A stretch of 64,000 nt of DNA, from positions 21,469 through 85,468 of the forward strand of contig CAZHDO010000002.1 in NCBI GenBank assembly GCA_964531375.1. The letters run 5' to 3'. Shown one piece after another: positions 25,444 to 45,376 of this stretch; the first letter of the stretch is position 1; each line of letters begins with the position of its first letter. Made by a program: the position numbers and the translations under genes. Source of the DNA: an uncultured Candidatus Saccharibacteria bacterium (lineage in GTDB: Bacteria; Patescibacteriota; Minisyncoccia; Phycocordibacterales; UBA12445). The notes beneath the pieces were generated by a model. The model ran no database searches, had not been told where the DNA came from, and was given only the letters and a program-made list of their open reading frames with translations.

Positions 25444-25648
25444 ATTTTACTCTTCTAACCACATCATTAAAACCCTTGAAAGAAAGTGTTTTTGCTTTAT
25501 TTCACAAAAAGGTAGCCACGCTAAATATTATTCTGAAGCCTTTAAAAATACCGTTATTATTCCGACCGAAAGAAAACAAATTCCATTTGGAACATTTAAA
25601 TCGATACTTAGACAATCTGGACTTAAAAAAGAGGACTTCGAAAAATAG
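25436..25648 (+). CDS. hicA: HicA-family mRNA interferase toxin.
   Basis: IIKTLERKCFCFISQKGSHAKYY...TVIIPTERKQIPFGTFKSILRQSGL matches the HicA pattern (GSH...VPxH...GTLRSILKQAGL). Confidence 0.7.
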   Translation: MPKFYSSNHIIKTLERKCFCFISQKGSHAKYYSEAFKNTVIIPTERKQIPFGTFKSILRQSGLKKEDFEK

Positions 25649-25709
25649 CACGCGGGAATAACTCAACCGAAAAGTAACATTTTACCTTAAAATTATCCAC
25701 AGTTTTGGC

Positions 25710-25735
25710 TTTTGGAAACGACGTTTCCAAAAGGG
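25710..25735. repeat. 26-bp perfect palindrome (copy 2).
   Basis: Identical to 25152-25177. Confidence 0.8.
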
Positions 25736-25832
25736 GATTAAGTTATCCACATCTTTATCCGGAATTCGTACTTGCTTTTCAAAAGAAGTGTTATAATAAA
25801 TTGGGGATTATTGTTTCCCATTTTATAATATT

Positions 25833-26582
25833 ATGGATATTCTTCCTGGCGAAAATTTCTTTAAACGAGTGCTTATTTTAACGCTAATAACAGGCGGTTA
25901 CTTTTATTTTTCTTCTGGCACAAGAGCTAATATTACAAATACAGAAAATGGTACCATTCAAAAAATTGGAAATGCTGTGGTTTTTTCAAGAAACAAAGAT
26001 TCTGGTTCACCAAAGATGAACGAAATTAATGATTTGAATATCGTTAGCCAAAACCCAGAAACAAGCACCGCCAGTGTTTCAAACGCAATAAACCCAAACA
26101 ACCTTACTCAACTAAAGCTTTCTGATTTAAATATTGATAATAACAACACCACAAAAGACCTACAAACATACGCCAAAAACCTTTCTCTTGCTTTGAAGCC
26201 TTATTCTACTGATGGAATTCCAAACGAACTTGACCTTATGCTTCAGGTCGCAAAAAACCTGGACAATACCGCACTAAATAAAATAAGACTTTTATCACAA
26301 TTCCACGCTTTAATAGCCAAAGATCTCTCAAATATACAAGTTCCAAGCAGTGCTGGATGGAGACATTTAAATCTCACAAACAATTGCCTTAAAATTTCCT
26401 ATTTAGATAGCCAAATCGCAAACAATATCAACGACCCAAAGAAATTACCCTTATTATTAAACGATTTTCAAACTGAGACAAAATTATTCATTTCTACGAT
26501 AAACGACCTTAATCAGTTTTTCCTAGATAAAAAAATTATCTTTAACGACAACAACGCAATTTCAATAAAGCTAAAATTTTAA
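25833..26582 (+). CDS. Bitopic membrane protein, first gene of the T4SS-like cluster (VirB8-like topology).
   Basis: A single N-terminal TM segment (VLILTLITGGYFYFSS) followed by an extracytoplasmic domain of about 220 aa. The topology alone suggests VirB8. Confidence 0.4.
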   Translation: MDILPGENFFKRVLILTLITGGYFYFSSGTRANITNTENGTIQKIGNAVVFSRNKDSGSPKMNEINDLNIVSQNPETSTASVSNAINPNNLTQLKLSDLNIDNNNTTKDLQTYAKNLSLALKPYSTDGIPNELDLMLQVAKNLDNTALNKIRLLSQFHALIAKDLSNIQVPSSAGWRHLNLTNNCLKISYLDSQIANNINDPKKLPLLLNDFQTETKLFISTINDLNQFFLDKKIIFNDNNAISIKLKF

Positions 26583-29500
26583 ATGATCAATATTTTTGGG
26601 CACAAACCAATAAAATTACAACAAAAAGGTAAAACCCCTTATTCTTCGTCATTGCGAGCTGTGGGCGAAGCAATCCAGGATCCAGCACAATTAAATCTGG
26701 ATTGCCGCGGGCTACGCCCTCGCAATGACATATGGATAAAGTCTGTCTTTTATTCAACACTCGTTTTTACCGTCATAAGTGCGTCCATCTTTTCTTATTC
26801 CGCAAATAATTCCTTTGCCTCGACACTACCAATGGGGAACACCCCTGCAAATACGGCTGAAATTACTCAGATTGCGGCACTAGAAATAGGCAAACTTGTT
26901 CCAATTTTCCAGAAAATTAGAGAAATGGGAATAGAAGGAACCTTAGCAAATGGCAATCCAGAGACAATTAGAAAATTTAAAGAACTACAACCAATACTCG
27001 ACAGGCTTGCACCAGGCACAATGGACTCATTGAGCCAACTGCAAAACAACGTAAACGGTTATGCAAAACTTACTTTCTTAACAAAGGATCTGGCAAAAAA
27101 TCCTGAAATTGAAAAAATTAATCAAATATATGCGCTAACCCAATCGGTCAAAAACCTTGGCCAGGCGCAAGATATCAACGGTTTTATGAGTGCTGCTCAA
27201 GGACTCGCCGGAGTTCTACCAGGTCTAAGCCAAACACTTCCACAGATCCAACAAGGAATGAGCCTGATAAATCAATTCGCTGGGGCGCTCGGTGGCAACC
27301 AAACTCAAATCGCCATAAGTAAAATAGAATCGATGTCGAAACCTGGGGGCGCTCTTACCACTGCTCTATCCGGAGCTGGTACAGTTGGTCTTGGTGGGCA
27401 ATCACAATCCCTTTCGCAAATTTTAGGCGAACTTGATGAAGTCGACAAAATACTCAATGAAACTTTGCTAGCAGCAGATTATGACCTTTTTGCGGGTATG
27501 GACCCCCTCATTTCAAACCCAGAAGATATCGTCGGAGCAATGACCAGTGCACAAAAAGAGGCAATGAGTAAAAATAATCCTACCGGTCAAGGTGGTTGTC
27601 AGGGGGTACCAGCGGGACAAAATTCTCAAACAGGACAATACACAGGAAGTGGAAGTGGTGCCACAACAGCTTATCTTAAGGGCGCGGCTACACAATTCAT
27701 ACAAAATGGCGGAGTAAATGGAATTGTTCAACAAGGTTTAAGCGCGGTTTCTAATGCAGGCGTTAGTGGAATAGGCAATACCATAAGCGGTATCACTGGC
27801 GGGCTAACTCAGGCCACTGGACTACTTGGATCCACAGGAAGCCAATCAAATTCCTACATTAGTGCAATGACAAAAGGAATTACAGGTTTTACCGATGCAT
27901 ATGGCTCCGTATCAAGCGCACTTGGACTATCTGGCGGAGGGAGCAATGGTGTGCCTGTCATAGAACAACCAGGTCAGCTCATCAACTGGACAGGCGAAAT
28001 CAAAGACACAAACCAAAAAATCTGCGAAATCACACAGGCTATTCTTTCGGTTGAATTAAATATGTGGAACAAATTGACAAAGACTGACCCAGAACAGGCC
28101 AAAAAATCCGAAGATGCTTTTATTGCAACGAAAAAGGTAATAGAAAGGCAAAACAACGAGGACCGCAAGCCTCTCGACAACATTACAGGGCAAGGCCAAA
28201 ATTTCTATTCACCCGACACCTATCTATCACAAGCAATAAATGTTGGGCGAGCAATATACGAAAACGCTCTAAAGGGACTCTCTAGTCTAAATTATATAAG
28301 TCCGACAGCCAAGGACGACATGGTTCTAAAATTTAAACAGCAATCCGCGATAGAGCAGGGTGGGGCGAGAGCTAAGTACTTAGCAGCGACAACACCAACT
28401 TTTGATACATACAAATGGGTTACCGAAAGAACTACCAACCCTTTAACATTCCTCAATGGATTAATAAAAGTAGCTGAACCAAGAAACAACGTCATTGGAA
28501 ACCTTATGCTTCAAAACGAAGCCAGACAAGTAATGTTGGCTGACTATGAAAAGGAAGCTGAACTAAAATTAAAATACAGCTGGTTACCAGAAGAAACTTG
28601 CGACGTACCAGTTACAACTGACGACGGAAGAGTCGTTTGCGAAAAATCACACATTACAGTACCTGCAAGTATAAAGTCTGGAACAGCTCAAAAACTAAAA
28701 GACGGCTTAATTGAAAATACGCTTAACTCAAAACTTGCTGGACAAGACACACTAACCTTAATAAACCAGCTTCCGGCAGAAAACAAAATTGGCCAAGATG
28801 CTGAATATGCAAACTGGGAAGAATATAATTTAGCAAACACCGAAGCAAGCCCAGCAGACAACCCAGGCAACATAGGAGCCGGTGGTGGAGGTGGGGGTGG
28901 AAGTGGTGGTGGAAATGCAAACACTTCAAAACCATTAACACTAACCGAAATCAACACTATTCTTAATCAATTGCAAGGAATAACTGGAAGCGACACACAC
29001 GACCAAGGAGGAGATTCTTCTGAGCTATCGGAAGCTCCTGCTATAAATATCTCGATGTCTAAAGAAGACCTTGGCGATTCTGTGAGAATTTCCTGGAATG
29101 CAGATGGCGCTGAATCATGCAAAGCAGGCAATGATTGGCCAAACTATCTCGAAAACAACATTAACGGAAGCATAACAACCCCAATAAACTCAGATTTGGT
29201 CACGATGGATGAAATGGTAATCACCAAGCCAACCTTATTTACTTTTAAACCATACATTTCTGGCACAGACGATAGACAAATAAACGCACCACAGCCTTTT
29301 AATAAAACTTACTCAAAGGAAGGGGACTATCTAATAGAAACAGTTACCTATAAGCCAAACATAACCGGACTTATATCTGCTGACATTGTATTCTTAAACT
29401 TAAACGGCAAGGCTGTCTACATTACAGCAGGAGGTGAAGACGACTATATTTCTGCGTCGGACATTGTTAAGAGATTAATAACAACCTTAAATGACAAAGG

Positions 29501-29735
29501 TCTCTCCACAGACAAAGTAAGCGAATTTGCTCAATATACAATAAAACAAACGTATGACAGCCTTGTTATTTCAAAGAAAACAAAAATTTCCTCGACAGCA
29601 ATCGCTAGCATAAAAGGCGACCCACAATCGACAGCCCCAATCGGACTCCAGACAAGTTATGACTACAAAATTACCTGCAGTAACGCAATAGGCGACACAG
29701 CTGAAAGTAAAATAACAGTTGATTTTTTCAAATAA
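26583..29735 (+). CDS. Very large secreted or surface protein (1050 aa) with a Gly-rich linker.
   Basis: Its ATG overlaps the upstream stop. N-terminal TM/signal-anchor segment IWIKSVFYSTLVFTVISASIFSYSA. A poly-Gly run GAGGGGGGGSGGGN near aa 770. Confidence 0.5.
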   Translation: MINIFGHKPIKLQQKGKTPYSSSLRAVGEAIQDPAQLNLDCRGLRPRNDIWIKSVFYSTLVFTVISASIFSYSANNSFASTLPMGNTPANTAEITQIAALEIGKLVPIFQKIREMGIEGTLANGNPETIRKFKELQPILDRLAPGTMDSLSQLQNNVNGYAKLTFLTKDLAKNPEIEKINQIYALTQSVKNLGQAQDINGFMSAAQGLAGVLPGLSQTLPQIQQGMSLINQFAGALGGNQTQIAISKIESMSKPGGALTTALSGAGTVGLGGQSQSLSQILGELDEVDKILNETLLAADYDLFAGMDPLISNPEDIVGAMTSAQKEAMSKNNPTGQGGCQGVPAGQNSQTGQYTGSGSGATTAYLKGAATQFIQNGGVNGIVQQGLSAVSNAGVSGIGNTISGITGGLTQATGLLGSTGSQSNSYISAMTKGITGFTDAYGSVSSALGLSGGGSNGVPVIEQPGQLINWTGEIKDTNQKICEITQAILSVELNMWNKLTKTDPEQAKKSEDAFIATKKVIERQNNEDRKPLDNITGQGQNFYSPDTYLSQAINVGRAIYENALKGLSSLNYISPTAKDDMVLKFKQQSAIEQGGARAKYLAATTPTFDTYKWVTERTTNPLTFLNGLIKVAEPRNNVIGNLMLQNEARQVMLADYEKEAELKLKYSWLPEETCDVPVTTDDGRVVCEKSHITVPASIKSGTAQKLKDGLIENTLNSKLAGQDTLTLINQLPAENKIGQDAEYANWEEYNLANTEASPADNPGNIGAGGGGGGGSGGGNANTSKPLTLTEINTILNQLQGITGSDTHDQGGDSSELSEAPAINISMSKEDLGDSVRISWNADGAESCKAGNDWPNYLENNINGSITTPINSDLVTMDEMVITKPTLFTFKPYISGTDDRQINAPQPFNKTYSKEGDYLIETVTYKPNITGLISADIVFLNLNGKAVYITAGGEDDYISASDIVKRLITTLNDKGLSTDKVSEFAQYTIKQTYDSLVISKKTKISSTAIASIKGDPQSTAPIGLQTSYDYKITCSNAIGDTAESKITVDFFK

Positions 29736-29738
29736 AAA

Positions 29739-32564
29739 ATGAATTTTTGGAACAAAAATAAAATATTTAAACTTTTCCTAATTACATTAGTTGTTTTTTC
29801 TACGTTATTTTTAGCTGGTAAAGCACGGGCTAAAGATACAACTTTCCAGAATCAACAAATAATAAAAGAAGAACAAACGGAGACCACCGCAGCCATAGAA
29901 AACGCGAAAAATAGTATAGGAGCAGCTCCTTTAATAACAGATAAGAATAAAATTAAGGAAATAGGAGATAACTTGGCTATTGCAATTCCCTATATCGACA
30001 AGAAGATTGATGAGCAATCAAAATTAATTACTGATTTTAAAAAACAACAAGATGAAGTGAAGAAAAAAATGTCGAGAACAGGTTTGTTTGATAACGCAGA
30101 AGAAGCACAGGCTAAAATTGATTATTATAAAATAGAAAATCAACTCAAGACAGAAAACTATGTTTTATACGACCTAAAAGAAAAAAAGGCTGTATTAGAT
30201 CTTGAAAAAGCTAGAATTAGTGGGGATCAAAAACAAGTAAATGACGCAATAACAAAACTTGCTGAGGCACGTGTTAATCTAGGTTCAAATGACCACAGGA
30301 ATGACGTGGACACAAGTTTCTCTGGTATTATGACAACTGCGGTTTCAAGTCTGGTTGGTGATAAATGTACATGGGCAACACCAGGCATGCATTGTTTGTT
30401 TGATTTGATGTCGTGGGCCCTAACAGCTGTACGATATTTCCTTACAACCCTACTTAGTTATACTGCAGCAGCCTTTAATATCTCAATTGATATTTCAATA
30501 AATAATCTTTCCGGTTTCCTGTTCTCTATAAAGTCGATTGATATTGCCTGGAAAGTCTTAAGGGATTTGTGCAATATGTTTTTTCTCCTTGTAATGATGT
30601 ATATATCAATTGGAACTGTACTTCAACTTGATGGGGTGAATTGGAAAAAACAAATCGTTACACTGATATTTTCTGCACTTTTGATAAATTTTAGCATGAC
30701 GATAACTAGGGTTGTAATTGATACATCAAATATTTTTGCTGTTTATTTTTACGAACAAGCGGGCGGAGAAATGGTTGGTGTCAATTTAATAAAAAAGGTA
30801 GAAATAGATACCAATCTTGCTGGACTCAAAGAAACCGAAGGAACATCAAGTCTCGAAGGCTTAGTAAGCATGATTGGGACCTTGATACTATTAGTGTCAA
30901 CAATCTTTGTACTTCTTGCTGGTGCCATTTTAATCATCATAAGGATGGTGAGTCTCGTTTTTTTGTTAATTTTTTCACCACTACCTTGGCTAGGGGACGC
31001 AATCCCAAAATTTGGAGGTAAAATTACTGGCAGTTATTGGAATGAACTAATGGACCAGTCTTTATTTGCTCCTGCGTATATGTTTTGTTTATATTTTGCA
31101 ATGACAGTAATCAAATGCACAAATGTTTCACTACTAGGAACATTTAGTCAGGATAAATTCTCTTACAAGGTCCCTGGCGTTTCAATAATAATGTACAATG
31201 CGATTGTAATAAGCCTTATGCTTGGAGCAATAGCCGCCGCAAAAAAAATGAGTGCAGCCGGAGCTTCATTTGCAACATCAACTGCGGGCGGAATAGTGGG
31301 GGGTCTGACTGCTGGAGCAGCAGGATTTGCAGGCAGACAAACAATTGGCCGCATAGCTGGTTCTGATACTGTTACCGATTGGTTGAAAGATCAAAAGAAA
31401 AAAGGTGGCGCAACTGGCTATCTTGCTGAGACAGCAAGTGATTACATAGTAGACCCTATGGCAAAAGGCACGTACGACATTCGAGGAACAAAAGCAGCCG
31501 AGTCTTTTGAAAAAGCCTCTGATGCTAATTTTGGTAAAGCTGGTTCTGGAATGATCTTCGGAGAAGGTTGGGTCGGCGGATCTAAGGGTTATGCTGGTGG
31601 CTTAGCAGCAGCAAAAAAGGCCGAGAGACAGGCCGAAATTGACGAAAGAAAGGAGGCTACTGAGACAAACATAGAGGACGCTAAAAAAGAAATAGTTAGA
31701 TTGGCATCCACCCCAGGCGCTAACCCCGACGATATTAGAAAGAACCTTGGTTATCTAAACAAAGATAATTTCCTAGCAACTGTTGAGAAAAACCCAACCT
31801 TACTAATAAACAACGACATTACAAAATGGCTATCGGAAGATCAGATAAAAACATTAACAGATCCATCTAATAAAAAATCTTACGATGCTTTAGAAAAACA
31901 ATTATTACCAAAAACGCAAAATCCAAACGATAACAATAATCCATATACCAAGCTATCAGATTATCTAGAAGATCAAATGGGTGGCAACACAAAAAACAAA
32001 TCTGGGCGTTCTTATGCAGAGGTCAAGAGAGCAAAAAGAGCCCTTGATTCTGCAGTAAACAGCGGATTAACAACTGGTAATTTCGGTGGTGTAACGAGTA
32101 TAATAACAGGTCTAGCTGCTGGAAAAATTACAGACATAGCCGATGATTTATTTGACAGTACAGGCGCACTAAAAGGAGGAGTGGTAGAAGCACTAGGACC
32201 TAAAGAGCTGGGAGAACTAATTATCGGAAAATCGCTAAACAACACACAAACAACGGAACTAGGTTCAAAAGTTAGAGCCAGACTAGATACAATAAGAAAT
32301 GGAACGACAACGGAAGAAGACGATATTAGTAAAGACAGAATTCCTGATCCAGCAGGCGGAACCATGGATGACCCAGGTGGGGCAATGGAACCACATCCAA
32401 TCACAAGACAGCCTAGAATTAAGCAAGTTCCAAAGACCATCTCTGTTAAAATAAGAGTCCCAGCTGAAATGAAGCAAGACCCAAAGAAAACAGGAGATTT
32501 GCTGTTTAAAGACAAACAATTACAGAAACTTAGTGAATACCTGGATGGTCAAAAGATTTTCTAA
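29739..32564 (+). CDS. Polytopic membrane protein, VirB6/TrbL/TcpH-like candidate.
   Basis: Signal peptide MNFWNKNKIFKLFLITLVVFSTLFLAGKARA, then a coiled-coil region. A block of at least 6 TM helices spans aa 200-470. Gly/Ala-rich amphipathic segments follow, and the C-terminal domain is acidic. Confidence 0.45.
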   Translation: MNFWNKNKIFKLFLITLVVFSTLFLAGKARAKDTTFQNQQIIKEEQTETTAAIENAKNSIGAAPLITDKNKIKEIGDNLAIAIPYIDKKIDEQSKLITDFKKQQDEVKKKMSRTGLFDNAEEAQAKIDYYKIENQLKTENYVLYDLKEKKAVLDLEKARISGDQKQVNDAITKLAEARVNLGSNDHRNDVDTSFSGIMTTAVSSLVGDKCTWATPGMHCLFDLMSWALTAVRYFLTTLLSYTAAAFNISIDISINNLSGFLFSIKSIDIAWKVLRDLCNMFFLLVMMYISIGTVLQLDGVNWKKQIVTLIFSALLINFSMTITRVVIDTSNIFAVYFYEQAGGEMVGVNLIKKVEIDTNLAGLKETEGTSSLEGLVSMIGTLILLVSTIFVLLAGAILIIIRMVSLVFLLIFSPLPWLGDAIPKFGGKITGSYWNELMDQSLFAPAYMFCLYFAMTVIKCTNVSLLGTFSQDKFSYKVPGVSIIMYNAIVISLMLGAIAAAKKMSAAGASFATSTAGGIVGGLTAGAAGFAGRQTIGRIAGSDTVTDWLKDQKKKGGATGYLAETASDYIVDPMAKGTYDIRGTKAAESFEKASDANFGKAGSGMIFGEGWVGGSKGYAGGLAAAKKAERQAEIDERKEATETNIEDAKKEIVRLASTPGANPDDIRKNLGYLNKDNFLATVEKNPTLLINNDITKWLSEDQIKTLTDPSNKKSYDALEKQLLPKTQNPNDNNNPYTKLSDYLEDQMGGNTKNKSGRSYAEVKRAKRALDSAVNSGLTTGNFGGVTSIITGLAAGKITDIADDLFDSTGALKGGVVEALGPKELGELIIGKSLNNTQTTELGSKVRARLDTIRNGTTTEEDDISKDRIPDPAGGTMDDPGGAMEPHPITRQPRIKQVPKTISVKIRVPAEMKQDPKKTGDLLFKDKQLQKLSEYLDGQKIF

Positions 32565-32573
32565 TCATAAAAC

Positions 32574-33185
32574 ATGGAACATACAAAAGAACAAGTAAAT
32601 AATATTTTTCAATCACTACCGGTTGAAATAAAAACTGCAATTTTATCAGTTGAAACCTTTGATTCTATTGTAGAAATATCTCAAAAACACCAACTACACC
32701 TAGACCAACAATCTACACTTGGTCAGGAAACAGGGAATATTTTACTTGGAATCTCTGACCCACTAGATTTCGTGTCAACAATAAGTACAAAACTAGGAAT
32801 TGATAAAAACATAGCCAATCAAATTGTTGGCGAAATAAATGAGAAAATATTTAGTAAAGTTAAAGATTCACTAAGAAATATTCACAACGCTGCAAATAAG
32901 AAAGAGGTTCCAGTAAGTCCTGTGCCAGTTGCACCAAACCTTATTAAAAATACCGAAACACAAAATTTGAATGTTCCACAAAAAACATTAGATGTATTAC
33001 AAGGGAAGGGGGTTGTCACAGAACAAAAACACGACACAAGTATTCTCGGATTTTCAGTAGAGAAAATTGCCGACAAACCAACTAACATTCTAAGCCAGAA
33101 AATGAACGGAAGCTTCAATATGCCAAAAAACGAAACAGAAAATGGAACACAGAAAATAACAGATCCGTACTTAGAAAGTATATAG
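32574..33185 (+). CDS. Hypothetical protein.
   Basis: 203-aa ORF in the cluster, followed by an intergenic repeat element. Confidence 0.45.
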   Translation: MEHTKEQVNNIFQSLPVEIKTAILSVETFDSIVEISQKHQLHLDQQSTLGQETGNILLGISDPLDFVSTISTKLGIDKNIANQIVGEINEKIFSKVKDSLRNIHNAANKKEVPVSPVPVAPNLIKNTETQNLNVPQKTLDVLQGKGVVTEQKHDTSILGFSVEKIADKPTNILSQKMNGSFNMPKNETENGTQKITDPYLESI

Positions 33186-33388
33186 TATTGCGTATAAGTA
33201 TTTAGCATAAACACGAAAAGTATTAAGTATGGGTATATAGTGTTTAGTATAAATACACAAAGAGAAAAAAGACAAAATAAATAAAAAAAATGAGATATAA
33301 AATGCCAAATACCAGATACTACATACTTAATACAAAATACATAATACTGAAATTGCATATTTTTATTAATAATTCTTATTAATAAAAA
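33186..33388. repeat. Intergenic inverted-repeat element of the GTATTTAGTAT family.
   Basis: Forward units (gtataagtatttagcat, agtattaagtatgggtatatagtgtttagtata) on the left face reverse-complement units (atactacatacttaatacaaaatacataatact) on the right. Confidence 0.7.
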
Positions 33389-33390
33389 AA

Positions 33391-33819
33391 ATGCAATTTC
33401 AAGTTCCACAATTTATTGAAATAGAGGATAAAATAATAGGGCCTTTTACATTTTTCCAATTTATGTATCTTCTTGGTGGTTTTGGAGGTGGATATGCCTT
33501 ATATAGACTACTAGAACCATATTTAGGTAGTTTGGTTTATGTCGTAGTGGTACCTTTGATTATCTTTTCACTTGCATTGGCATTCTATAAAGTAAACGAA
33601 AGGCCATTTATAAATATCGTTGAGTCTTGGATAAAGTTTAAATTTAGCGGGAAAAGATATTTGTGGAAAAAGGAAGAAATAGTTATTAAAAAACAGGCTG
33701 ACGATATCGATATTTTAATCAGAAATGCCGGCACACAAAAAGCAGTCGTCCCAAAACTTACATCAGGAAGATTAAAAGACATTGCTTGGAGTTTAGATAT
33801 ACAGGAGAAGATAAAGTAA
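33391..33819 (+). CDS. PrgI/VirB3-like T4SS membrane protein.
   Basis: N-terminal motif VPQFIEIEDKIIGPFTFFQFMYLLGG, followed by two TM helices. This is the layout of the PrgI/TcpE/VirB3-like family. Confidence 0.5.
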   Translation: MQFQVPQFIEIEDKIIGPFTFFQFMYLLGGFGGGYALYRLLEPYLGSLVYVVVVPLIIFSLALAFYKVNERPFINIVESWIKFKFSGKRYLWKKEEIVIKKQADDIDILIRNAGTQKAVVPKLTSGRLKDIAWSLDIQEKIK

Positions 33820-33952
33820 GTATTGGGTATAAAGTATTTAGTATTTAGTATAAAGAGAAAAAGTATTAAGTATCGGGTATATAGTATTTAGTATAAATAC
33901 AAAACAAGACAAAATAAACAAAAAAATTATGTATCGTGTATAATATATTAGA
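33820..33952. repeat. Intergenic GTATTTAGTAT-family repeat element.
   Basis: gtattgggtataaagtatttagtatttagtataaag...gtattaagtatcgggtatatagtatttagtataaatac. Confidence 0.7.
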
Positions 33953-33954
33953 GC

Positions 33955-34329
33955 ATGGAAAAAATAAAGAGTTTTACTGATTTAAATACATGGAAAGAAG
34001 GGCATTCATTAGCTTTATCTGTTTATGAAATAACAAAATCATTTCCAAAAGAAGAAATATTTAGCCTTACCAACCAAATGAGACGATGCGCAGTGTCAAT
34101 TACATCAAATATAGCCGAAGGATTTAGTAGAAGGTCAAAAAAAGAAAAAATACAATTTTATTCAATATCACTGGGATCTATAACAGAACTACAAAATCAG
34201 TTAATCATATCAAAAGACATAAAATACTTGATGCAGGAAAAATTTACCACAATGTTTGACCAAGCCACGAAGACTCAAAGAATGATATATGGATTAATAA
34301 AAAGTGCAAAAGATGTTGTTTATACATAA
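33955..34329 (+). CDS. Four-helix-bundle protein (TIGR02436 / 23S rRNA intervening-sequence protein, Avd-like fold).
   Basis: 124 aa. TDLNTWKEGHSLALSVYEITKSFPKEE...MRRCAVSITSNIAEGFSRRSKKEKIQFYSISLGSITELQNQL matches this family closely. Confidence 0.7.
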   Translation: MEKIKSFTDLNTWKEGHSLALSVYEITKSFPKEEIFSLTNQMRRCAVSITSNIAEGFSRRSKKEKIQFYSISLGSITELQNQLIISKDIKYLMQEKFTTMFDQATKTQRMIYGLIKSAKDVVYT

Positions 34330-34361
34330 TACGTAATACAAAATACTAAATACATATAAAT

Positions 34362-35015
34362 ATGGCGAATAAAAGTACACAAGATTTCGTTCCGGTAGAC
34401 AAAATACATGATGGAATAGTTGTTCTGAAAGATGGGACAATGCTTGTTGTTTTTATGTGCTCGTCTTTAAATTTCGCGTTAAAATCAGCCGACGAACAGC
34501 AGGCTGTAATAATGCAATATCAAAATTTCTTAAACTCGCTAGATTTCACTGTTCAAATACTTGTTCAATCAAGAAGGCTTGATATTAAGCCATATTTAAA
34601 CTCTCTCAACGACAGAATGAGCTTGCAATCAAACGACCTACTTAAAATACAACTAAAAGAATATATTAACTTCATAAGAAATTTCACAGAGGGGGTTAAT
34701 ATTATGGAAAAATCTTTTTATGTTGTGGTTCCATATCAGCCAATGACTTTTATACAGCCAGGTAGTACAAGTAGCGGAATACTGTCTTCGATAACTGGGT
34801 TTTTTGGTAAAAGCGAAAACAAAATGGCTGAAAAGAAACAAGAATTACTTACCTTTGAAGAGAATAGAAGCCAGCTGGAACAAAGAGCAGGAGTGGTATC
34901 ACAAGGCCTCAGTAGGACAGGTGTTAGGACAGTCGCGCTAGGTACCGAAGAATTAATCGAACTTTTTTACAGAATATTTAACCCAGAAGACCAAGGTGGT
35001 GTGCCGAAGGTGTAG
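34362..35015 (+). CDS. VirB4/TraC-family conjugal-transfer ATPase, N-terminal domain fragment.
   Basis: VPVDKIHDGIVVLKDGTMLVVFMCSSLNFALKSADEQQAVIMQYQNFLNSLDFTVQILVQS matches the VirB4 N-terminal domain of Gram-positive systems (PrgJ/TcpF/Orf16-like). It ends 125 bp, and one frame, away from the ATPase ORF. Confidence 0.5.
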   Translation: MANKSTQDFVPVDKIHDGIVVLKDGTMLVVFMCSSLNFALKSADEQQAVIMQYQNFLNSLDFTVQILVQSRRLDIKPYLNSLNDRMSLQSNDLLKIQLKEYINFIRNFTEGVNIMEKSFYVVVPYQPMTFIQPGSTSSGILSSITGFFGKSENKMAEKKQELLTFEENRSQLEQRAGVVSQGLSRTGVRTVALGTEELIELFYRIFNPEDQGGVPKV

Positions 35016-35140
35016 GAAGGGGGTGGAGGGGAAGTATTAAGTATTTGGTATTATGTATTGTGTATATTAAATTTTATACAAAACACGAAACACCAAATAC
35101 TAGATACTAAATACAAAATACTTAATACTTTGTAAAATAT
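35016..35140. repeat. GTATTTAGTAT-family inverted-repeat element splitting VirB4.
   Basis: TAG-gaagggggtggagggg-aagtattaagtatttggtattatgtattgtgtat ... aaacaccaaatactagatactaaatacaaaatacttaatact. Confidence 0.7.
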
Positions 35141-36943
35141 ATGAGCTTTTTTGGAAAACAAAACGACGAAAATAAAATAGAGACAATTCTACCGCAGGAT
35201 ATATATTCTGGTGGGGTTTTGGAGCTCAAGGATATTATTTCTCCTTCAGCGCTAGAAATTGGATCAAATAGCATTAAACTAGGGGAGAAGATAGCGAGGA
35301 CGTTTTTCGTCATTTCTTATCCTAGGTTTTTGTCTGAAAACTGGTTTTCTCCAATAATAAATCTCGACAAAATATTCGATGTTTCTCTTGTAATACACCC
35401 GATAGACACATCCACAGTCCTTCATCAACTTCAAAAGAAACTAGCTGAAGTACAAAGCCAAATACACTCCAACGAAACAAAAGGAATGGTCCGAGATCCT
35501 ATGCTCGACACAGCTTTTCAAGACATAGAGACATTAAGAGACCAATTATCCCAAGCCAGAGAGAAAATTTTTGACGTCGGACTTTATCTCACAATGTACG
35601 CCAACAGTGAAGAGGAACTAAATAAGGTTGAAGCTGAAATTAAAACGATAATGGAATCAAGGCTGGTGTATATAAAACCTGCTCTTTTTCAACAAGAAGA
35701 AGGGTTTAATAGTATTATGCCAATCGCATCAGACGCGCTAGCCGTGAACACTAAACTTAACTCGGCTCCGCTTTCTAGTATTTTCCCCTTTATCTCTTTT
35801 GACCTTACTTCAAACAAAGGAATTTTATATGGAATAAATAGACACAACTCCAGCCTTATAATCTTCGACAGATTTTCACTTGAAAACTACAACTCTGTTA
35901 TCTTTGCCAAAGCTGGCTCTGGTAAATCTTATTTTACAAAACTGGAAATTTTAAGGTCTTTAATGTTCGATGTAGATGTAATTGTAATTGACCCTGAAAA
36001 AGAATATGAATTCCTAGCAGAAGCTGTCGGGGGTAGGTATTTTAATATTTCCCTCTCGTCAGAACACCACATAAATCCTTTTGACCTTCCACCAGTAAGA
36101 GAAGATGAATCTCCATCTGATGTTTTGAGATCTCACATTATTAGTCTCGTGGGGTTGTTTAGAATAATGCTTGGAGGAATGTCGCCAGAAGAAAGCTCTG
36201 TTATGGATAATGCGATAATGGAGACATACGCCCTTAAAGATATAACAGCGGATAATGATTTCACAAACGCAAATCCTCCGCTTATGTCTGACCTTGAACT
36301 CGTGCTCGCGGGTATGGACGGGGGGGCATCGCTTGCACAAAGGCTTCTTAAATACACACAAGGAACTTGGTCCGGATTCTTAAACAGACCAACAAACATC
36401 GACATCAATAAAAAATTCATAGTATTTTCTGTTCGCGATATGGAAGACGAACTCAAGCCTATCGCAATGCACATAATAATGAATAATATTTGGGGCTCAA
36501 TCAGAAGAGACCTGAAAAAGAGAATGCTTATTATCGACGAGGCGTGGTGGATGATGAAATCGCCAGATACCGCTTCATTCTTATACAGCCTCGCAAAAAG
36601 AGGTAGAAAATATTATCTCGGTGTGACAACAATTACACAAGACGTCGCCGATTTTTTAAACTCGCCATACGGTATTCCTATCATTACGAACTCTTCAATG
36701 CAGATAATATTAAAACAATCTCCAGCCTCGATAGGCCTTGTTCAAAAAACGTTCAACCTGACCGACGAAGAGAAGTTTTTGCTTTTAGAGTCGAATGTGG
36801 GGGAGGGAATCTTCTTTGCTGGCTTGAAGCACGTTGCAATTAAAGTAATCGCTTCATACACCGAAGATCAAATAATAACATCAGATCCATCACAGATATT
36901 AGCGATTAAAAAAGCAAAAGAAGATTTAAGAGCGACGGAGTAG
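35141..36943 (+). CDS. VirB4/TrbE/CagE-family T4SS ATPase (C-terminal body).
   Basis: Walker A FAKAGSGKSYF, Walker B MLIIDEAWWMM, middle region ARTFFVISYPRFLSENWFSPII, and C-terminal RGRKYYLGVTTITQDVADF. 600 aa. Confidence 0.75.
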   Translation: MSFFGKQNDENKIETILPQDIYSGGVLELKDIISPSALEIGSNSIKLGEKIARTFFVISYPRFLSENWFSPIINLDKIFDVSLVIHPIDTSTVLHQLQKKLAEVQSQIHSNETKGMVRDPMLDTAFQDIETLRDQLSQAREKIFDVGLYLTMYANSEEELNKVEAEIKTIMESRLVYIKPALFQQEEGFNSIMPIASDALAVNTKLNSAPLSSIFPFISFDLTSNKGILYGINRHNSSLIIFDRFSLENYNSVIFAKAGSGKSYFTKLEILRSLMFDVDVIVIDPEKEYEFLAEAVGGRYFNISLSSEHHINPFDLPPVREDESPSDVLRSHIISLVGLFRIMLGGMSPEESSVMDNAIMETYALKDITADNDFTNANPPLMSDLELVLAGMDGGASLAQRLLKYTQGTWSGFLNRPTNIDINKKFIVFSVRDMEDELKPIAMHIIMNNIWGSIRRDLKKRMLIIDEAWWMMKSPDTASFLYSLAKRGRKYYLGVTTITQDVADFLNSPYGIPIITNSSMQIILKQSPASIGLVQKTFNLTDEEKFLLLESNVGEGIFFAGLKHVAIKVIASYTEDQIITSDPSQILAIKKAKEDLRATE

Positions 36944-37009
36944 GAGGGGTAAGTATTTAGTATTAGGTATTTGGTATTTAGTATAAAAATACACAATACA
37001 AATAAAAAA
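36944..37009. repeat. GTATTTAGTAT-family repeat element.
   Basis: TAG-gaggggtaagtatttagtattaggtatttggtatttagtataaaaatacacaatac. Confidence 0.7.
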
Positions 37010-37609
37010 ATGCCAGAAGAAAATACGCCGACATTAGACAAAGCAGACTGGTTAAGCCTTTATCTCGTGGCCATTTTTTTTGATGTTATGGGCTGGTTGA
37101 TGGCTTTTGTGGATATTTTTTTGTTAGGGTGGGGAGGGTTCTTTTTAAATCTTTCTGGGGGGGCCACTTTCTCACTTTGGTTAGCAATCTGGAAAGACAA
37201 ATTCGGTGGTTTTGGTAAAATATCAACGACGTTTATAATTGTTTTTCTTTTAGAAGCAACCCCTATTGTGGGCGATGTTTTACCACTTTGGACTGGCATG
37301 ATTTACAGGTTACAAAAAAATCACGAAAAAAACCTAATGGGTACAATAACAGGCACCATCAAAGACAAAGCAACAAAAAAGAAAGAGCAGGACGAGAGAA
37401 GAAAAAAAGAGGAGGACGAAAAAAAGAAAAAAACAGAAGAAGATGGAAGAAGGGAAGAAGAAAGAAGAGAACAACAAAGACAAAAGGAAATGGATGAGAA
37501 GAAAGCAGAAAGACTGGAAAATGGAAAAAGTAGCCAAAATGAAAAGGAGGTAGGTGAAAATAAAAATGAGGGTCTGGAAGAAGCCCAACCTGCACAACAA
37601 GTAGAATAA
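37010..37609 (+). CDS. Small polytopic membrane protein with a Lys/Glu/Arg-rich cytoplasmic tail.
   Basis: ATG at 37010 (MPEENTPTL). Three or four TM helices, then a KKEQDERRKKEEDEKKKK tail. The ORF-track start at 36971 is a TTG inside the repeat element, and I reject it. Confidence 0.4.
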   Translation: MPEENTPTLDKADWLSLYLVAIFFDVMGWLMAFVDIFLLGWGGFFLNLSGGATFSLWLAIWKDKFGGFGKISTTFIIVFLLEATPIVGDVLPLWTGMIYRLQKNHEKNLMGTITGTIKDKATKKKEQDERRKKEEDEKKKKTEEDGRREEERREQQRQKEMDEKKAERLENGKSSQNEKEVGENKNEGLEEAQPAQQVE

Positions 37610-37617
37610 ACAAAAAT

Positions 37618-38622
37618 ATGAAAAAATATCTAGCTCAAATAATTTTAATATCAACAATACTCCTACCACTTAGCGTTGGGGCCGTTGCGACAACTCCGAC
37701 CATTGGGGGTAATTTATCCATAGAGCTCGAACCAAAAAATCCAGGAAGTATGACTTTTGTAAAGGCAACAGCAGTGAGCTTCGAGGCTGAGCTAGGAAGC
37801 GCAACAATATCTTGGTATTTAAATGGAAAACTGGAAAGGGAAGGGGTTGGTCAAAATAATTTTACTTTTCAAACAGACAAACCAGGCCAAATTTCAATAA
37901 TCAAAACCGTAATAAAAACTGATAAAAAACAAATAGAAAAAACAATTTTAATAAATCCCGCTGATGTTGATATTGTTTGGGAAGCGAATACATACACAAC
38001 TCCTTTTTATAAAGGAAAGGCCCTAGCTTCTCCAAGCAGTACTATAAAAATAACAGCTATTCCAAGTATAATTTCTAACCAAGGAACTGCTCTTTCTCCA
38101 GCAAATCTAACATATAAATGGAAATATAATTACGAAAACTTATTATCTGGAATTGGAAAACAAAACGCAGAAATAAAGACTGGATCTCCTTTTACAGATA
38201 ACGTTATTTCTGTGGTTGTATCAGACAATACTGGTAGTATCGTCGCCGAAAAAACGATAAAAATCAGACCTGAAAACCCTAATATTGTTTTTTATGAAGA
38301 CAAATCAATAGAAGGAACAAACTACAACATGGCTTTAGATAATACTTATAATTTAAGTGAAAAAGAAAGCACTGTTAGAGCAGAGCCATATTTCTTTTCT
38401 TACCCGAAATCTGCAACCGAGAATAATCTGTTATTTAGTTGGGCATTAAATAGCAACGGCATTGCACCAAACGACGGCAGTCCTAAGATAATTACCCTCA
38501 GAAATGAAACTGGCAAAAATATCACATCGGAACTTTCTCTTTCAATAGAAAATACAATGCAAGTATTTCAGTCTGCAATTAACAAACTAACAATAAAAGC
38601 AACATCTGGCCTTGGTTTTTAA
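37618..38622 (+). CDS. Secreted protein with Ig-like beta-rich repeats.
   Basis: Signal peptide MKKYLAQIILISTILLPLSVGAVA. 334 aa. Confidence 0.5.
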   Translation: MKKYLAQIILISTILLPLSVGAVATTPTIGGNLSIELEPKNPGSMTFVKATAVSFEAELGSATISWYLNGKLEREGVGQNNFTFQTDKPGQISIIKTVIKTDKKQIEKTILINPADVDIVWEANTYTTPFYKGKALASPSSTIKITAIPSIISNQGTALSPANLTYKWKYNYENLLSGIGKQNAEIKTGSPFTDNVISVVVSDNTGSIVAEKTIKIRPENPNIVFYEDKSIEGTNYNMALDNTYNLSEKESTVRAEPYFFSYPKSATENNLLFSWALNSNGIAPNDGSPKIITLRNETGKNITSELSLSIENTMQVFQSAINKLTIKATSGLGF

Positions 38623-38631
38623 TCGAAAAAA

Positions 38632-39414
38632 ATGAAAAATAAAACTTTTAAAAATGTAATAAGAAAAATGTTGGCGGTTCTTTGTTTTTTTATGCCAATA
38701 ATTTCATTTGCAGCCACAACTGGCTATATACCACTGGAACCACTGCCTGGGTTAAAATCCACGGACGGAGTTGTAAGTCCTGGTGATTATATTAAGTCTG
38801 CATATTGGTATGTTCTCGGAATGACGATTGCACTTTCTGTTTTAATGATGGTTGTCGGCGGCCTACAATACACACTCACTTGGGCAGATCCCGGCCAAGC
38901 AGGGGAAGGAAAGAAAAGGATCGAAAGTGCCGTTATTGGACTAATTCTTGCCTTACTATCTTGGCTTATTCTTTATACAATTAACCCACGGTTAGTTGAT
39001 TTAAGCATGCCGACAGCAAAAGAGTGTGAAAAGGCACCAACCGCATCAACAAACACAACAGTTATACCAGTATCTGGAAACGCAAGTGGTAGTGGAGCAG
39101 TAGGTCCAACAATCGAGGCACAAAAAGAACTGGAGGCTTTAAAGAAAAAAATAAAAGAAATTCCTGATATGAATAAACCAACAGAGACATCAGGATGGGA
39201 TCCCCTTTTGCAAATTCAACCACCAACACAAAACCCTAATCCAACCACAATAACAACACCTCCAGCCCCAACACCAACTCCGACTCCAGCGCCTACTCCA
39301 ACACCAGCACAAGAAAAACCAACAACATCAACACAAGCACCCTTTACCACAAACAATGGTTGGACATTTCACGAGGTTCCGATAGAACAACCTAATAATA
39401 ATCAAGGAGATTAA
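38632..39414 (+). CDS. VirB2/TrbC-like pilin candidate with a Pro/Thr-rich C-terminal extension.
   Basis: A long signal peptide, then two hydrophobic helices (AYWYVLGMTIALSVLMMVVGG and VIGLILALLSWLILYTI) separated by a short charged loop. The tail is TTPPAPTPTPTPAPTPTP. Assignment is by topology only. Confidence 0.35.
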   Translation: MKNKTFKNVIRKMLAVLCFFMPIISFAATTGYIPLEPLPGLKSTDGVVSPGDYIKSAYWYVLGMTIALSVLMMVVGGLQYTLTWADPGQAGEGKKRIESAVIGLILALLSWLILYTINPRLVDLSMPTAKECEKAPTASTNTTVIPVSGNASGSGAVGPTIEAQKELEALKKKIKEIPDMNKPTETSGWDPLLQIQPPTQNPNPTTITTPPAPTPTPTPAPTPTPAQEKPTTSTQAPFTTNNGWTFHEVPIEQPNNNQGD

Positions 39415-39427
39415 GCATTATTTAGCA

Positions 39428-40720
39428 ATGAACAAAAATAAAATTATATTTATAATAATCGTCTCTCTGGTTGTGGTTTTGGGTATTGGGGGGACTGTTT
39501 GGTATTTAAACAATCAAATACAACCTCAAACCAATACACCGGTCACAAACCCTGTCACCACAACAGATAATGGAACTGGTGCTTTTCCTAGCTCTGACAA
39601 AATAATTCCTGTAAGCACTCCCACCAACCAACAAAACACTATCGATAACACCGCGGGAGCTGATACAGTAGAAAGGGTTCCTGGGGAAATTACAAGAAAA
39701 GCAGATGTTGGTGTTGCTGGTGTTGCTTTTATAGATAATTCTTTTAATGGCGCTGGGCCTCTTTTAAGATACATAGAAAAGGGGACAGGGCACATAAGCG
39801 ACATTTCTTATGACGAAAAAATACCTACAAAAATTTCAAACACGACAATGACTGGCGTTTTTGATACCGTTTGGAACAAAGACGCTTCTTCTTTAATAAT
39901 CAGAAGACTAGATGGCGTAGGAAATAATATTCAAACGATTTACGGTAATTTAGAAAGAGGTTTCGCTTCGACAACAATTGATGGGGAAGTGGGAAGCATT
40001 GTTGGTACAATTCTACCAAGTAGCGTAAAAGAAATAGCAGTTTCGCCGTTAAAAGATAAAATATTTTTCCTAAGTAAAAATGGAAACTCTACTATTGGTT
40101 CAATTTCAGACTTTAACAGAGTTGGGGCAAGCAACAAAAAGAATCAAATATTTTCATCTGCTTTTTCTGACTGGTCTGTGTCTTGGCCCACAACAAATTC
40201 AATATCTTTAGTCACAAAACCTGGATATAACGTAAGTGGTTATTTTTATTCTCTAGGGGTTTCAAACAATAAGCTCGAAAAGGTTATTGGGGATATTTCT
40301 GGTTTAACAACACTAATGAGCCCAAGTGGAGATAAAACAATTTATTCTGAGACAACAGGTGCTGGTTTTATGACATATTACACAAACAAAAGCACAGATT
40401 ATCCAAACATAATGCCAATAACAACACTCCCAGAAAAATGCGTTTGGAGTAAAATAAACGAAAACGTGGTTTATTGTGGCGTGCCTAAAACAACCCCACT
40501 AGCGAAATATCCTGACTCTTGGTATCAAGGAGTAACTTCATTCTCCGACAACATATACGAGATCAATTTAGACACAAATTCAGCCAGAGTAATGATCGAC
40601 GACCAAAAACTTGGAGGCATCGAGATTGACGTCACAAACCCAATCCTAAGCACAAAAGAAGACTATCTAGCCTTCATAAACAAAAAAGACAACACACCAT
40701 TTATGGTTAAGATAAGATAG
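39428..40720 (+). CDS. Membrane-anchored extracytoplasmic protein (beta-propeller-like).
   Basis: N-terminal TM segment IIFIIIVSLVVVLGIGGTVWYL, followed by a Thr/Asn/Ser-rich region. 430 aa. It is the last gene of the cluster and is followed by a large repeat element. Confidence 0.5.
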   Translation: MNKNKIIFIIIVSLVVVLGIGGTVWYLNNQIQPQTNTPVTNPVTTTDNGTGAFPSSDKIIPVSTPTNQQNTIDNTAGADTVERVPGEITRKADVGVAGVAFIDNSFNGAGPLLRYIEKGTGHISDISYDEKIPTKISNTTMTGVFDTVWNKDASSLIIRRLDGVGNNIQTIYGNLERGFASTTIDGEVGSIVGTILPSSVKEIAVSPLKDKIFFLSKNGNSTIGSISDFNRVGASNKKNQIFSSAFSDWSVSWPTTNSISLVTKPGYNVSGYFYSLGVSNNKLEKVIGDISGLTTLMSPSGDKTIYSETTGAGFMTYYTNKSTDYPNIMPITTLPEKCVWSKINENVVYCGVPKTTPLAKYPDSWYQGVTSFSDNIYEINLDTNSARVMIDDQKLGGIEIDVTNPILSTKEDYLAFINKKDNTPFMVKIR

Positions 40721-40905
40721 GAGGGGTGGTGTTTAGTATTTAGTATTATGTATATAGTATTTAGTATAAGCACTAACACAAACAATAAACCACTTTTTTA
40801 AGTAGTTGTAAGTTTAGTAGCATACTAAATACAAAATACTAGATACAATATACTTTTTGTTTTATTTATACTAAATACAAAATACAATATACATAATACC
40901 AAATA
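40721..40905. repeat. Large GTATTTAGTAT-family inverted-repeat element (between convergent genes).
   Basis: TAG-gaggggtggtgtttagtatttagtattatgtatatagtatttagtata ... atactaaatacaaaatactagatac ... atactaaatacaaaatacaatatacataataccaaatactaaatact. Confidence 0.75.
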
Positions 40906-41622
40906 CTAAATACTCTTCGCCTTTTGTTTTACGTATAACTCGTGGGCGATACCGAAGAGGTTACTTGTTATCCAGAACACAGAGACGGCTGCATTTAGTT
41001 TTGAGGCGATATAAACAATAAAAACGGGCAAGAAATACTTAACCTGCCAATTCATACTTTGTGCAAAATCATCGGCAAAAGAAGACTCTTTTCCTTGGCT
41101 CTTTGGAAGGTCAGGAACGGAGAGTTTGGTTTGAAAAAACTGTGTAATCCCAACCAAAACCGCTAAATAAAAATTGCTTGTAGCCATTTCTATAAATCCC
41201 AAAAACATAGTGTTTACTGTGGATGGAATTATATTAAATGAGAATATTACAGAAGAGGTAAGGTCTATTTTTTCGCTAAAAATATAATAAAGAGCTATAA
41301 ACATCGGCAATTGAATAAATAAAAGCAAAATAGTAGAAAATGGATTTATTCCATGTTCCTTATATAGATTCATTGTTCTGATGGCCTGCTCTTCTTGATT
41401 ATCCTTAAATTTTTCTTTTATGTTCTTTATATGTGGCTCAATTTCTTTCATTTTCTTCTGAGTCTCAAGTGATTTGTGAGAAAGGGGGAGTATTACGATC
41501 TTTGAAAATATCGTTAAAAGAACAATTGCGATACCAATATCGTTGTTTGGGACAATTGCACTCAAAAATATAATAAGATTATATAGGGGGTAATAAAAGA
41601 TGTTAAAAATAAATGAAAACAT
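40906..41622 (-). CDS. yidC: Membrane protein insertase YidC (short form).
   Basis: GIAIVLLTIFSKIVILPLS...QKKMKEIEPHIKNIKEKFKDNQEEQAIRTMNLYKEHGINPFS is the YidC/Oxa1 core. Confidence 0.8.
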   Translation of the reverse strand: MFSFIFNIFYYPLYNLIIFLSAIVPNNDIGIAIVLLTIFSKIVILPLSHKSLETQKKMKEIEPHIKNIKEKFKDNQEEQAIRTMNLYKEHGINPFSTILLLFIQLPMFIALYYIFSEKIDLTSSVIFSFNIIPSTVNTMFLGFIEMATSNFYLAVLVGITQFFQTKLSVPDLPKSQGKESSFADDFAQSMNWQVKYFLPVFIVYIASKLNAAVSVFWITSNLFGIAHELYVKQKAKSI

Positions 41623-45371: not shown

Positions 45372-45376
45372 TTTAT

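Follow-up and report, generated by a model that had tools for sequence, protein, structure and literature searches.

A probable chromosomal type IV secretion locus of the Patescibacteria clade beside a replication origin, with heptad-repeat hairpins and an IVP gene in its spacers

The 64,000-nt stretch of contig CAZHDO010000002.1 analysed here, referred to below as the window, carries at positions 25833-40720 of its plus strand a run of 12 co-directional open reading frames (ORFs) that include the components of a reduced type IV secretion system (T4SS). Their products measure, in order, 249, 1050, 941, 203, 142, 124, 217, 600, 212, 334, 260 and 430 aa and are named here after the component or, failing that, after their length (Table 1). 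The first-pass annotation of this DNA had proposed a VirB4/VirB3/VirB6/VirB2-type apparatus that lacks both relaxase and coupling protein, in a genome of the candidate phyla radiation, a proposal borne out by the profile and fold matches described below; it had counted eleven co-directional genes, which is right as to orientation but one short in number, the 124-aa IVP gene having been overlooked. Gene spacing suggests two tightly packed blocks, one from p249 to p203 (gaps of 0-9 nt) and one from p212 to p430 (8-13 nt), whereas around prgI, trsD and virB4 the spacers lengthen to 27-205 nt and bear repeats. The GC content of the cluster (0.33-0.41) is near that of its flanks.

Table 1. Features of the locus and its borders. 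The fourth column gives the number of loci, among 80 related ones, in which the protein family was found at the same relative position by iterated profile searches; many gaps are due to short contigs.
Feature	Position	Strand	Loci of 80	Remarks
RelE/YafQ-like pair	23838-24323			weak match, E=7e-4, below cutoff
ksgA/rsmA-like methyltransferase	24336-25130	+		upstream boundary; named from sequence appearance and the neighbourhood in PMC12102498, no family search run
HicB-like/HicA toxin-antitoxin cassette	25225-25648	+	0	HicA_toxin E=1.1e-10; DUF7387 3.3e-7
p249	25833-26582	+	50	bitopic membrane protein; opens the locus
p1050	26583-29735	+	50	large secreted or anchored Gly-rich protein; fast-evolving
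p941	29739-32564	+	60	VirB6/TrbL-like channel subunit of the 'extended VirB6' type; polytopic
p203	32574-33185	+	66	soluble protein; directly upstream of prgI
ORF-less heptad hairpin, p203-prgI spacer	33178-33347			51 nt 82% identical to 33875-33925 (IVP cassette arm/loop)
PrgI/VirB3-like small membrane protein, 142 aa	33391-33819	+	76	PF12666; membrane anchor for VirB4
IVP cassette	33820-34356	+		arms 33820-33897 and 34322-34356
23S_rRNA_IVP/bAvd-like four-helix-bundle gene, 124 aa	33955-34329	+		in the cassette loop, between prgI and trsD
TrsD, 217 aa	34362-35015	+	79	free-standing homologue of the VirB4 N-terminal domain
Heptad hairpin, trsD-virB4 spacer	35034-35129			fold -27.7 kcal/mol, z=-4.8; after G-rich box 35016-35032
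VirB4 ATPase, 600 aa	35141-36943	+		conju_CD1110, P-loop_TraG, PDB 4ag5; motor
Short heptad hairpin after the virB4 stop	36952-36984			preceded by TAGGAGGGG
p212	36971-37609	+	48	small membrane protein; directly after virB4
p334	37618-38622	+	74-75	Sec-signal protein, extracytoplasmic accessory subunit
VirB2-like pilin, 260 aa	38632-39414	+	70	PF18895
p430	39428-40720	+	64-65	N-terminally anchored protein; last gene of the locus
Compound heptad hairpins	40732-40913			from the locus end to the convergent yidC
yidC	40906-41622	-		60KD_IMP 4e-42; downstream boundary, convergent with the locus
dnaA	42651-44039	+		Bac_DnaA 7.7e-63; conserved downstream boundary

Core components of the locus

The profile search that the first-pass annotation had recommended places the 600-aa ATPase in the NCBIfam family conju_CD1110 above its cutoff (361.5 against 325 bits, model positions 185-733 of 752). 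Among its other matches are P-loop_TraG in Pfam (3e-26), TrwK (1e-6) and the solved structure of a VirB4, PDB 4ag5 (4.3e-41). Both Walker motifs are intact: A reads AKAGSGKS at aa 256-263, B reads MLIIDE at aa 462-467. Of the best 120 homologues listed, nearly all measure about 600 aa; their identity to the window protein is 74-100%, and they are either unnamed or labelled Patescibacteria, Paceibacteria or Parcubacteria. Paceibacteria proteins of about 600 aa that share 75-87% identity with it number in the thousands. As comparison set we fetched, via VirB4, 80 related loci from species-representative genomes, all of them Paceibacteria/Parcubacteria-type metagenome-assembled genomes (VirB4 identity 71-85%), and given the source of these loci and the labels of the listed matches, the protein very likely belongs to the monophyletic Patescibacteria clade. 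The catalogue of Patescibacteria T4SSs by Quinonero-Coronel et al. 2025 (PMC12102498) describes such a VirB4 clade as nested in the MPF-FATA class of mating-pair formation (MPF) systems.

Upstream of virB4, the 217-aa product of trsD matches the NCBIfam models VirB4_plasma (positions 101-233, 1.7e-11), CD1110 (positions 2-121, 1.1e-7) and TrsD (2.5e-5). The two ORFs had initially been taken for a single VirB4 ATPase split in two, and the 125-nt repeat-hairpin spacer that separates them, in different frames, would suit a degenerate system in which insertion of a repeat element has broken virB4 and the locus is decaying. The comparative data refute a split or pseudogenised VirB4: trsD is a separate ORF upstream of virB4 in 79 of the 80 related loci, including the closest relative (L001, VirB4 85% identical), where it ends at its own stop and the homologous virB4 ATG follows 35 nt later, the window spacer exceeding this one by about 95 bases of repeat hairpin. 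Both window ORFs are intact and jointly span the whole VirB4 model, and the length of about 600 aa is shared by thousands of homologues and by nearly all of the 120 above. The ATPase with its Walker motifs thus stands, the split does not, a decaying locus is left with a negligible probability, and TrsD is, on this comparative evidence, a normal separate gene and not a fragment. TrsD is also the most abundant T4SS-associated protein in Patescibacteria, where it is usually encoded beside virB4 (PMC12102498).

The remaining core components match what had been proposed for them. The PrgI/VirB3-like protein, which bears the motif IGPFTFFQF, is recognised by its Pfam model with E=1.6e-11 (45 bits, cutoff 27). 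The pilin candidate scores 31.5 bits against T4SS_pilin (E=1.9e-7, cutoff 26.6) and consists of a signal peptide, two hydrophobic, transmembrane (TM) helices and a 135-aa C-terminal tail with 36% P+T; its family is mostly single-copy in the related loci. In the polytopic 941-aa protein, which has some 5-6 hydrophobic segments, an extracytoplasmic N-terminal region precedes the TM core (about aa 270-500), and the long C-terminal part is hydrophilic. The protein itself yields no Pfam or NCBIfam match, and 2 of its 45 positional orthologues match TrbL/VirB6 (best 6e-5) and several of its database homologues bear PF19590/PF04610. An AlphaFold2 model of aa 190-565, with a pLDDT of 73.6 from a shallow 18-sequence alignment, returned as its top five Foldseek matches in the PDB TrwI/VirB6 chains of the R388 machine (E 0.011-0.18, probability 0.90-1.0), and its fold also matches DotA. 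These indirect lines agree with one another and support its assignment as a VirB6-like subunit.

Accessory proteins and conserved gene order

Searches of Pfam and NCBIfam with the window proteins and with their family profiles assign p249, p1050, p203, p212, p334 and p430 to no curated family. They had been described as not assignable, which holds in that sense, yet their recurrence at fixed positions indicates that all six are conserved positional orthologues across Paceibacteria and not orphans. Within this group p249 is weakly hydrophobic near its N-terminus (aa 13-29), and 17 of 46 orthologues bear TSP3 Ca-binding repeats. The VirB8-like topology claimed for p249 is indeed present; a VirB8 fold is not supported. 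Residues 107-232 are modelled by AlphaFold2 as entirely helical (five helices, pLDDT 60-88, only 4 sequences aligned), the model finds generic helical bundles alone in the PDB by Foldseek, with no NTF2/VirB8 structural match, and the family profile has no VirB8 match in Pfam or the PDB, so that at this modest model confidence it is the topology alone that resembles VirB8. No VirB8 or VirB1 candidates were found among p203, p212, p334, p430 and p1050 either. The lack of an NTF2-like protein in the cluster agrees with the reported rarity of detectable VirB8 in Patescibacteria outside the class ABY1 (PMC12102498).

The largest accessory protein, p1050, has neither a family match nor a PDB sequence match, and its orthologues combine a common core with swapped modules (F5/8-type-C, Ig-like, FN3 and, in one case, a phage lysozyme), which makes it a candidate adhesin or host-recognition module. 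A signal-like segment spans aa 4-27 of p334, and weak Ig_3, BiPBP_C and PKD matches of its orthologues, together with weak PDB matches to Ig-like decoration proteins, give weak hints of tandem Ig-like domains. For p430, which begins with a TM segment (aa 1-28), weak PD40, DPPIV_N and DUF5050 matches in a few orthologues and a TolB match at E=0.032 point to what is possibly a TolB-like beta-propeller. The two smallest proteins of the group differ in their topology: p203 contains no hydrophobic segment, ends in a region with an invariant D197/P198/Y199 (D-P-Y) and is probably cytoplasmic, whereas p212 has hydrophobic regions at about aa 27-61, probably holding more than one helix, and aa 86-107, a K/E-rich tail with 57% charged residues and conserved D38, P98 and P105; its true start may be the ATG at about position 37010. 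Neither has a Pfam family.

A synteny comparison, likewise recommended at the outset, finds the order ksgA-p249-p1050-p941-p203-prgI-trsD-virB4-p212-p334-pilin-p430-yidC-dnaA kept over the 80 species-level Paceibacteria genomes, with all 11 T4SS-associated genes (the IVP gene excluded) in the same order between ksgA and yidC/dnaA. A ksgA homologue lies upstream of the locus in 39 related loci and is a typical neighbour of virB4 in Patescibacteria (PMC12102498). Median best-hit identities over the same loci fall from VirB4 (73%) through DnaA (55%), TrsD (53%), KsgA (47%), PrgI (44%), YidC (41%) and the pilin (36%) to the extracytoplasmic proteins (about 30%). That VirB4 is more conserved than DnaA suggests strong purifying selection, and the ranking as a whole points to a motor under tighter constraint than the replication initiator and to rapidly evolving surface parts.

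In keeping with the initial description, the cluster contains no type IV coupling protein (T4CP, VirD4), relaxase, VirB11 or lytic transglycosylase. Among the window ORFs that we scanned against profiles, namely all of at least 480 aa and a selection of shorter ones, there is likewise no T4CP, relaxase, VirB11 or integrase; outside the cluster these ORFs code for housekeeping functions or type IV pili.

Function of the locus and its alternatives

We read the locus, with a probability of about 0.8, as a chromosomal, vertically inherited T4SS of the Patescibacteria clade, an MPF-FATA derivative in the Paceibacteria layout beside the replication origin. In the mechanism that we propose, VirB4, TrsD and PrgI would form a membrane motor. 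Powered by it, a VirB6-based channel and a VirB2 pilus or conduit would be assembled across the monoderm envelope, with the extracytoplasmic proteins supplying the wall-spanning and host-contact parts. Because neither a relaxase nor a coupling protein accompanies the locus and its chromosomal position is fixed, its most likely role would be in epibiotic host interaction, namely contact through pili and the transfer of proteins or other macromolecules, and not in conjugation. Transposon sequencing (Tn-seq) has found the homologous Saccharibacteria cluster to be essential (PMC10633639), which renders outdated the earlier remark that such systems are experimentally uncharacterised; epibiotic growth, as known from Southlakia epibionticum, requires this cluster together with its pilins (PMC10633639, PMC12857230). 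Tubular structures have furthermore been seen at a parasite-host interface, and their authors suggest that they may be T4SS pili (bioRxiv 10.64898/2026.06.21.733656). Several points weigh against our reading: the essentiality data come from Saccharibacteria and not from Paceibacteria, the direction of transport and the substrate are deduced rather than observed, no equivalent of VirB8 or VirB1 was identified in the cluster, and the analysis covers 64 kb, so that a T4CP and a relaxase could lie elsewhere in the genome.

The last point bears on whether the genes could instead serve mating-pair formation in an integrated conjugative element, be it active or in decay, with its relaxase and coupling protein outside the window. 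Its VirB4 does fall in the CD1110/MPF-FATA conjugative family, toxin-antitoxin modules sit just upstream, and T4CP homologues distant from virB4 are common in Patescibacteria (PMC12102498). Such an element is nevertheless difficult to reconcile with an identical chromosomal position and gene order in 80 species, with a composition that matches the flanks, with a VirB4 more conserved than DnaA and with the lack of integrase, relaxase and T4CP among the scanned ORFs; relaxases, moreover, are reported in 103 of 3035 Patescibacteria genomes (PMC12102498). As to the toxin-antitoxin modules, two of which had been noted upstream, the HicA match is firm, the RelE/YafQ-like pair remains below cutoff, and ksgA sits between them. 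The HicB-like/HicA cassette is flanked by two copies of the palindrome CCTTTTGGAAACGACGTTTCCAAAAGG (25155-25199 and 25690-25734) and appears to have been inserted recently between ksgA and the T4SS genes; since the cassettes are absent from all relatives, they are better explained as later insertions. A conjugative element of this kind is thus very improbable.

Somewhat less improbable, though still unlikely, is a nucleic-acid import machine, similar to ComB or to archaeal Ced, that feeds a cell unable to make nucleotides. Like ComB, the locus lacks a T4CP and a relaxase, Patescibacteria are without nucleotide synthesis, and a 2026 preprint proposes feeding on host RNA and ties VirB4 to macromolecule transfer (bioRxiv 10.64898/2026.06.21.733656). 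In S. epibionticum, however, competence relies on type IV pili together with ComEC and can be dispensed with, the comEC deletion being viable, whereas the T4SS is essential (PMC10633639, PMC12857230); the window already codes for a type IV pilus set of its own (PilB, PilC and pilins), and an import direction is without direct evidence. On present grounds, among which the Saccharibacteria genetics disfavour import, both the conjugative and the import readings appear less likely than a host-interaction T4SS.

Gram-positive MPF-FATA systems reside on mobile elements and, besides relaxase and T4CP, encode VirB8-like proteins and a VirB1-type hydrolase; they are not known to have a VirB2 pilin. The window shares with such systems (pCF10 Prg/Pcf, CTn2 CD1110, pGO1 Trs) the VirB4 family, PrgI and a VirB6/PrgH-type channel protein, with pGO1 also a TrsD-like protein, and outer-membrane core parts are absent on both sides, but its locus is fixed in the chromosome and includes a pilin. 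A much closer counterpart is the published Patescibacteria system, composed of TrsD, PrgI, VirB6 and VirB2-like pilins with no relaxase and no nearby T4CP and located, in Paceibacteria, near dnaA, dnaN and ksgA (PMC12102498). With this system the window shares TrsD, VirB4, PrgI/VirB3, a VirB6-like protein and the PF18895 pilin, the absence of an adjacent relaxase or T4CP and of a detectable VirB8, and the site by ksgA, yidC, dnaA and dnaN; nothing essential differs, the extras of the window being its single pilin, the HicAB insertion, the IVP gene and the heptad hairpins. The S. epibionticum cluster SEML1_0006-0019 (Wang et al. 2023, PMC10633639) has the same core order, VirB6-like ... PrgI - TrsD-like - VirB4, PF18895 pilins and no recognisable relaxase or T4CP. 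Where that cluster has six pilin genes in an array, the window has one. It also has a lysozyme/glucosaminidase gene and encodes an NTF2-like (VirB8-like) protein, but the window contains neither a hydrolase nor an NTF2-like candidate, and its accessory proteins (p249, p1050, p334 and p430) are different ones.

The T4SS itself is accordingly nothing new: such systems, described and catalogued between 2020 and 2025, occur in about 80% of Patescibacteria genomes. The value of the locus lies in its being a fully resolved Paceibacteria example, which provides a parts list for structural and genetic work on the machine. The only part that may be new is the heptad-hairpin/IVP feature: our literature searches turned up neither heptad hairpins nor IVP genes as components of T4SS operons, and the text and two searchable supplement files of PMC12102498 make no mention of a single pilin gene, the HicAB insertion, the IVP gene or the heptad hairpins.

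Heptad-repeat hairpins and the IVP cassette

The repeat-bearing spacers of the window contain arrays of a 7-nt unit, GTATNNN, followed by a reverse-complement array. The triple-unit pattern GTATNNNGTATNNNGTAT has 57 matches in the window, where none would be expected, and 1 in all 80 related loci, so that the description of these inverted repeats as genome-specific has held up. The arrays fold into long interrupted stems (-23 to -41 kcal/mol, z -4.8 to -6.5) that match no known RNA family in Rfam, and occur at 33178-48338 and 60173-60204, some of them behind housekeeping genes. One pair of arms encloses the IVP gene, the sole one in the window, in a cassette whose inverted-repeat score exceeds that of all 100 shuffles. 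The encoded protein matches PF05635 (E=5.3e-38) and PDB 2gsc (1e-16), its bAvd match being below cutoff (34.4 against 40 bits), and the ORF-less hairpin in the p203-prgI spacer is, as far as its sequence identity tells, a paralogue of the cassette arms. A diversity-generating retroelement was considered and rejected: we found no reverse transcriptase among the window ORFs scanned and no template/variable repeat pair, and the repeats are 7-nt arrays alone.

Separately, a G-rich box (TAGGAGGGG or GGAGGGG) precedes the left arm of several hairpins, directly after the upstream stop codon (35016-35032, 36941-36949, 40718-40730 and 45633-45647); the right sides of the hairpins have no complementary C-rich box, and the homologous spacer of L001 is without the G-rich box.

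Comparable elements with another heptad in each genome, for example GAATATA, AATTACG, TAGGCNC or GAGTTAN, are found in relatives, and heptad hairpins occur in the related loci L006, L015, L034, L040, L055, L057, L076, L077 and others. The comparison thus suggests that the period and the hairpin form are conserved, and that the heptad sequence would be homogenised within a genome while differing between genomes. Arrays of period 7, of which there are 82 in 28 loci, form the commonest tandem-repeat class (period 6 has 24 arrays and period 8 has 18), and 47 of the 82 lie no more than 2 kb upstream of the virB4 start. The 15 IVP matches in 1.37 Mb of loci (L005, L006, L008, L011, L012, L015, L016, L020, L023, L039, L040, L047, L053, L055 and L059) all share the orientation of the operon and lie at distances of 0.4-2.2 kb upstream from virB4, and in different genomes the genes occupy three spacers, p203-prgI, prgI-trsD and trsD-virB4. 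In 11 of 20 cases an IVP gene has significant inverted repeats on either side, compared with 0 of 20 and 1 of 21 control genes, although such enrichment statistics overstate independence because the loci share their phylogeny. We tentatively propose, as a possibility that we rate well below even odds, that heptad hairpins with or without an IVP gene constitute an undescribed class of Paceibacteria element with a preference for the prgI, trsD and virB4 spacers.

RNase III excises 23S rRNA intervening sequences of a kind that carries an IVP/S23p ORF, and hairpin repeats of the Correia and repetitive extragenic palindromic (REP) types are co-transcribed in operons. The window cassette resembles the former in placing an IVP-family ORF inside inverted repeats that form a long stem, and its ORF-less hairpin copies in intergenic spacers recall both the intervening sequences and the Correia/REP repeats. 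Unlike an rRNA intervening sequence, it lies between prgI and trsD in a protein-coding operon, in a window without rRNA, and its arms consist of 7-nt units in tandem, with a different sequence for each genome. By analogy, the most economical reading would be that hairpins and IVP cassette form a co-transcribed RNA stem module akin to an intervening sequence, possibly of selfish origin. The stems could then act as processing, stabilising or attenuating elements, comparable to the RNase III-cleaved rRNA intervening sequences, and might set subunit stoichiometry as RNase III-type processing or attenuation modules; alternatively, the hairpins could be the targets of the genome's own IVP protein.

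Telling against such a module is that an RNA-level role of the hairpins is pure deduction and that they could be selfish DNA resembling miniature inverted-repeat transposable elements (MITEs). Hairpins and cassette would in that case be an autonomous IVP element and its MITE-like, ORF-less copies, mobile and without a role in the T4SS, as the 82% identity over 51 nt between the hairpin at 33178-33347 and the cassette arm/loop, the placement of IVP genes in three different spacers genome by genome, the genome-specific sequences and the window hairpins behind housekeeping genes would all allow. IVP proteins, however, are without known transposase activity, and across 80 genomes arrays and IVP genes cluster in the 2 kb upstream of virB4, with 15 of 15 IVP genes co-oriented, a pattern that suggests selection or strong targeting. 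We therefore regard a purely selfish nature of these elements as possible but rather doubtful. Either the processing or attenuation module proposed above or a role as targets of the IVP protein, if real, would give the 23S-rRNA-IVP family its first functional context outside rRNA, and the association with virB4-proximal spacers, if general, would define a new class of regulatory or selfish element and offer a lead on IVP protein function.

Surrounding genes and minor sequence features

Downstream of the locus, dnaA is followed by a DnaA-box cluster at 44045-44215, and dnaN also lies on this side. The rest of the window codes for PBP1, TyrRS, PolA, UvrD and RuvABC-type genes and a type IV pilus set, and an Rfam scan detects three tRNAs and no rRNA. 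The pilus genes, at 2725-7903 and 55480-57177, specify a T2SSF/PilC-like protein, a PilB-type T2SSE ATPase and a 600-aa N-methyl pilin-like protein with a CarboxypepD_reg domain; the genome thus codes for both type IV pili and a T4SS, as do those of Saccharibacteria. Scans for sigma-70 promoters and intrinsic terminators returned sites no more numerous than in shuffled sequences. Two perfect DnaA boxes (TTATCCACA) lie at 25693-25701 and 25743-25751, 80-140 nt upstream of p249; control of the operon through these boxes was rejected, as 2 of 46 relatives have boxes upstream of p249, and they are probably incidental or genome-specific.

Two further repeats were noted in the window. A 68-nt inverted repeat pair, 78% complementary, has its copies 47 kb apart at 13921-13988 and 61038-61105, each adjoining a tRNA gene (tRNA-His at 13823-13894 and tRNA-Lys at 61127-61200). 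An 810-aa ResIII/Helicase_C helicase (51590-54022) contains near its C-terminus at least four in-frame tandem repeats of 174 nt (58 aa), which span 53100-53921 and are 70-94% identical at the DNA level.

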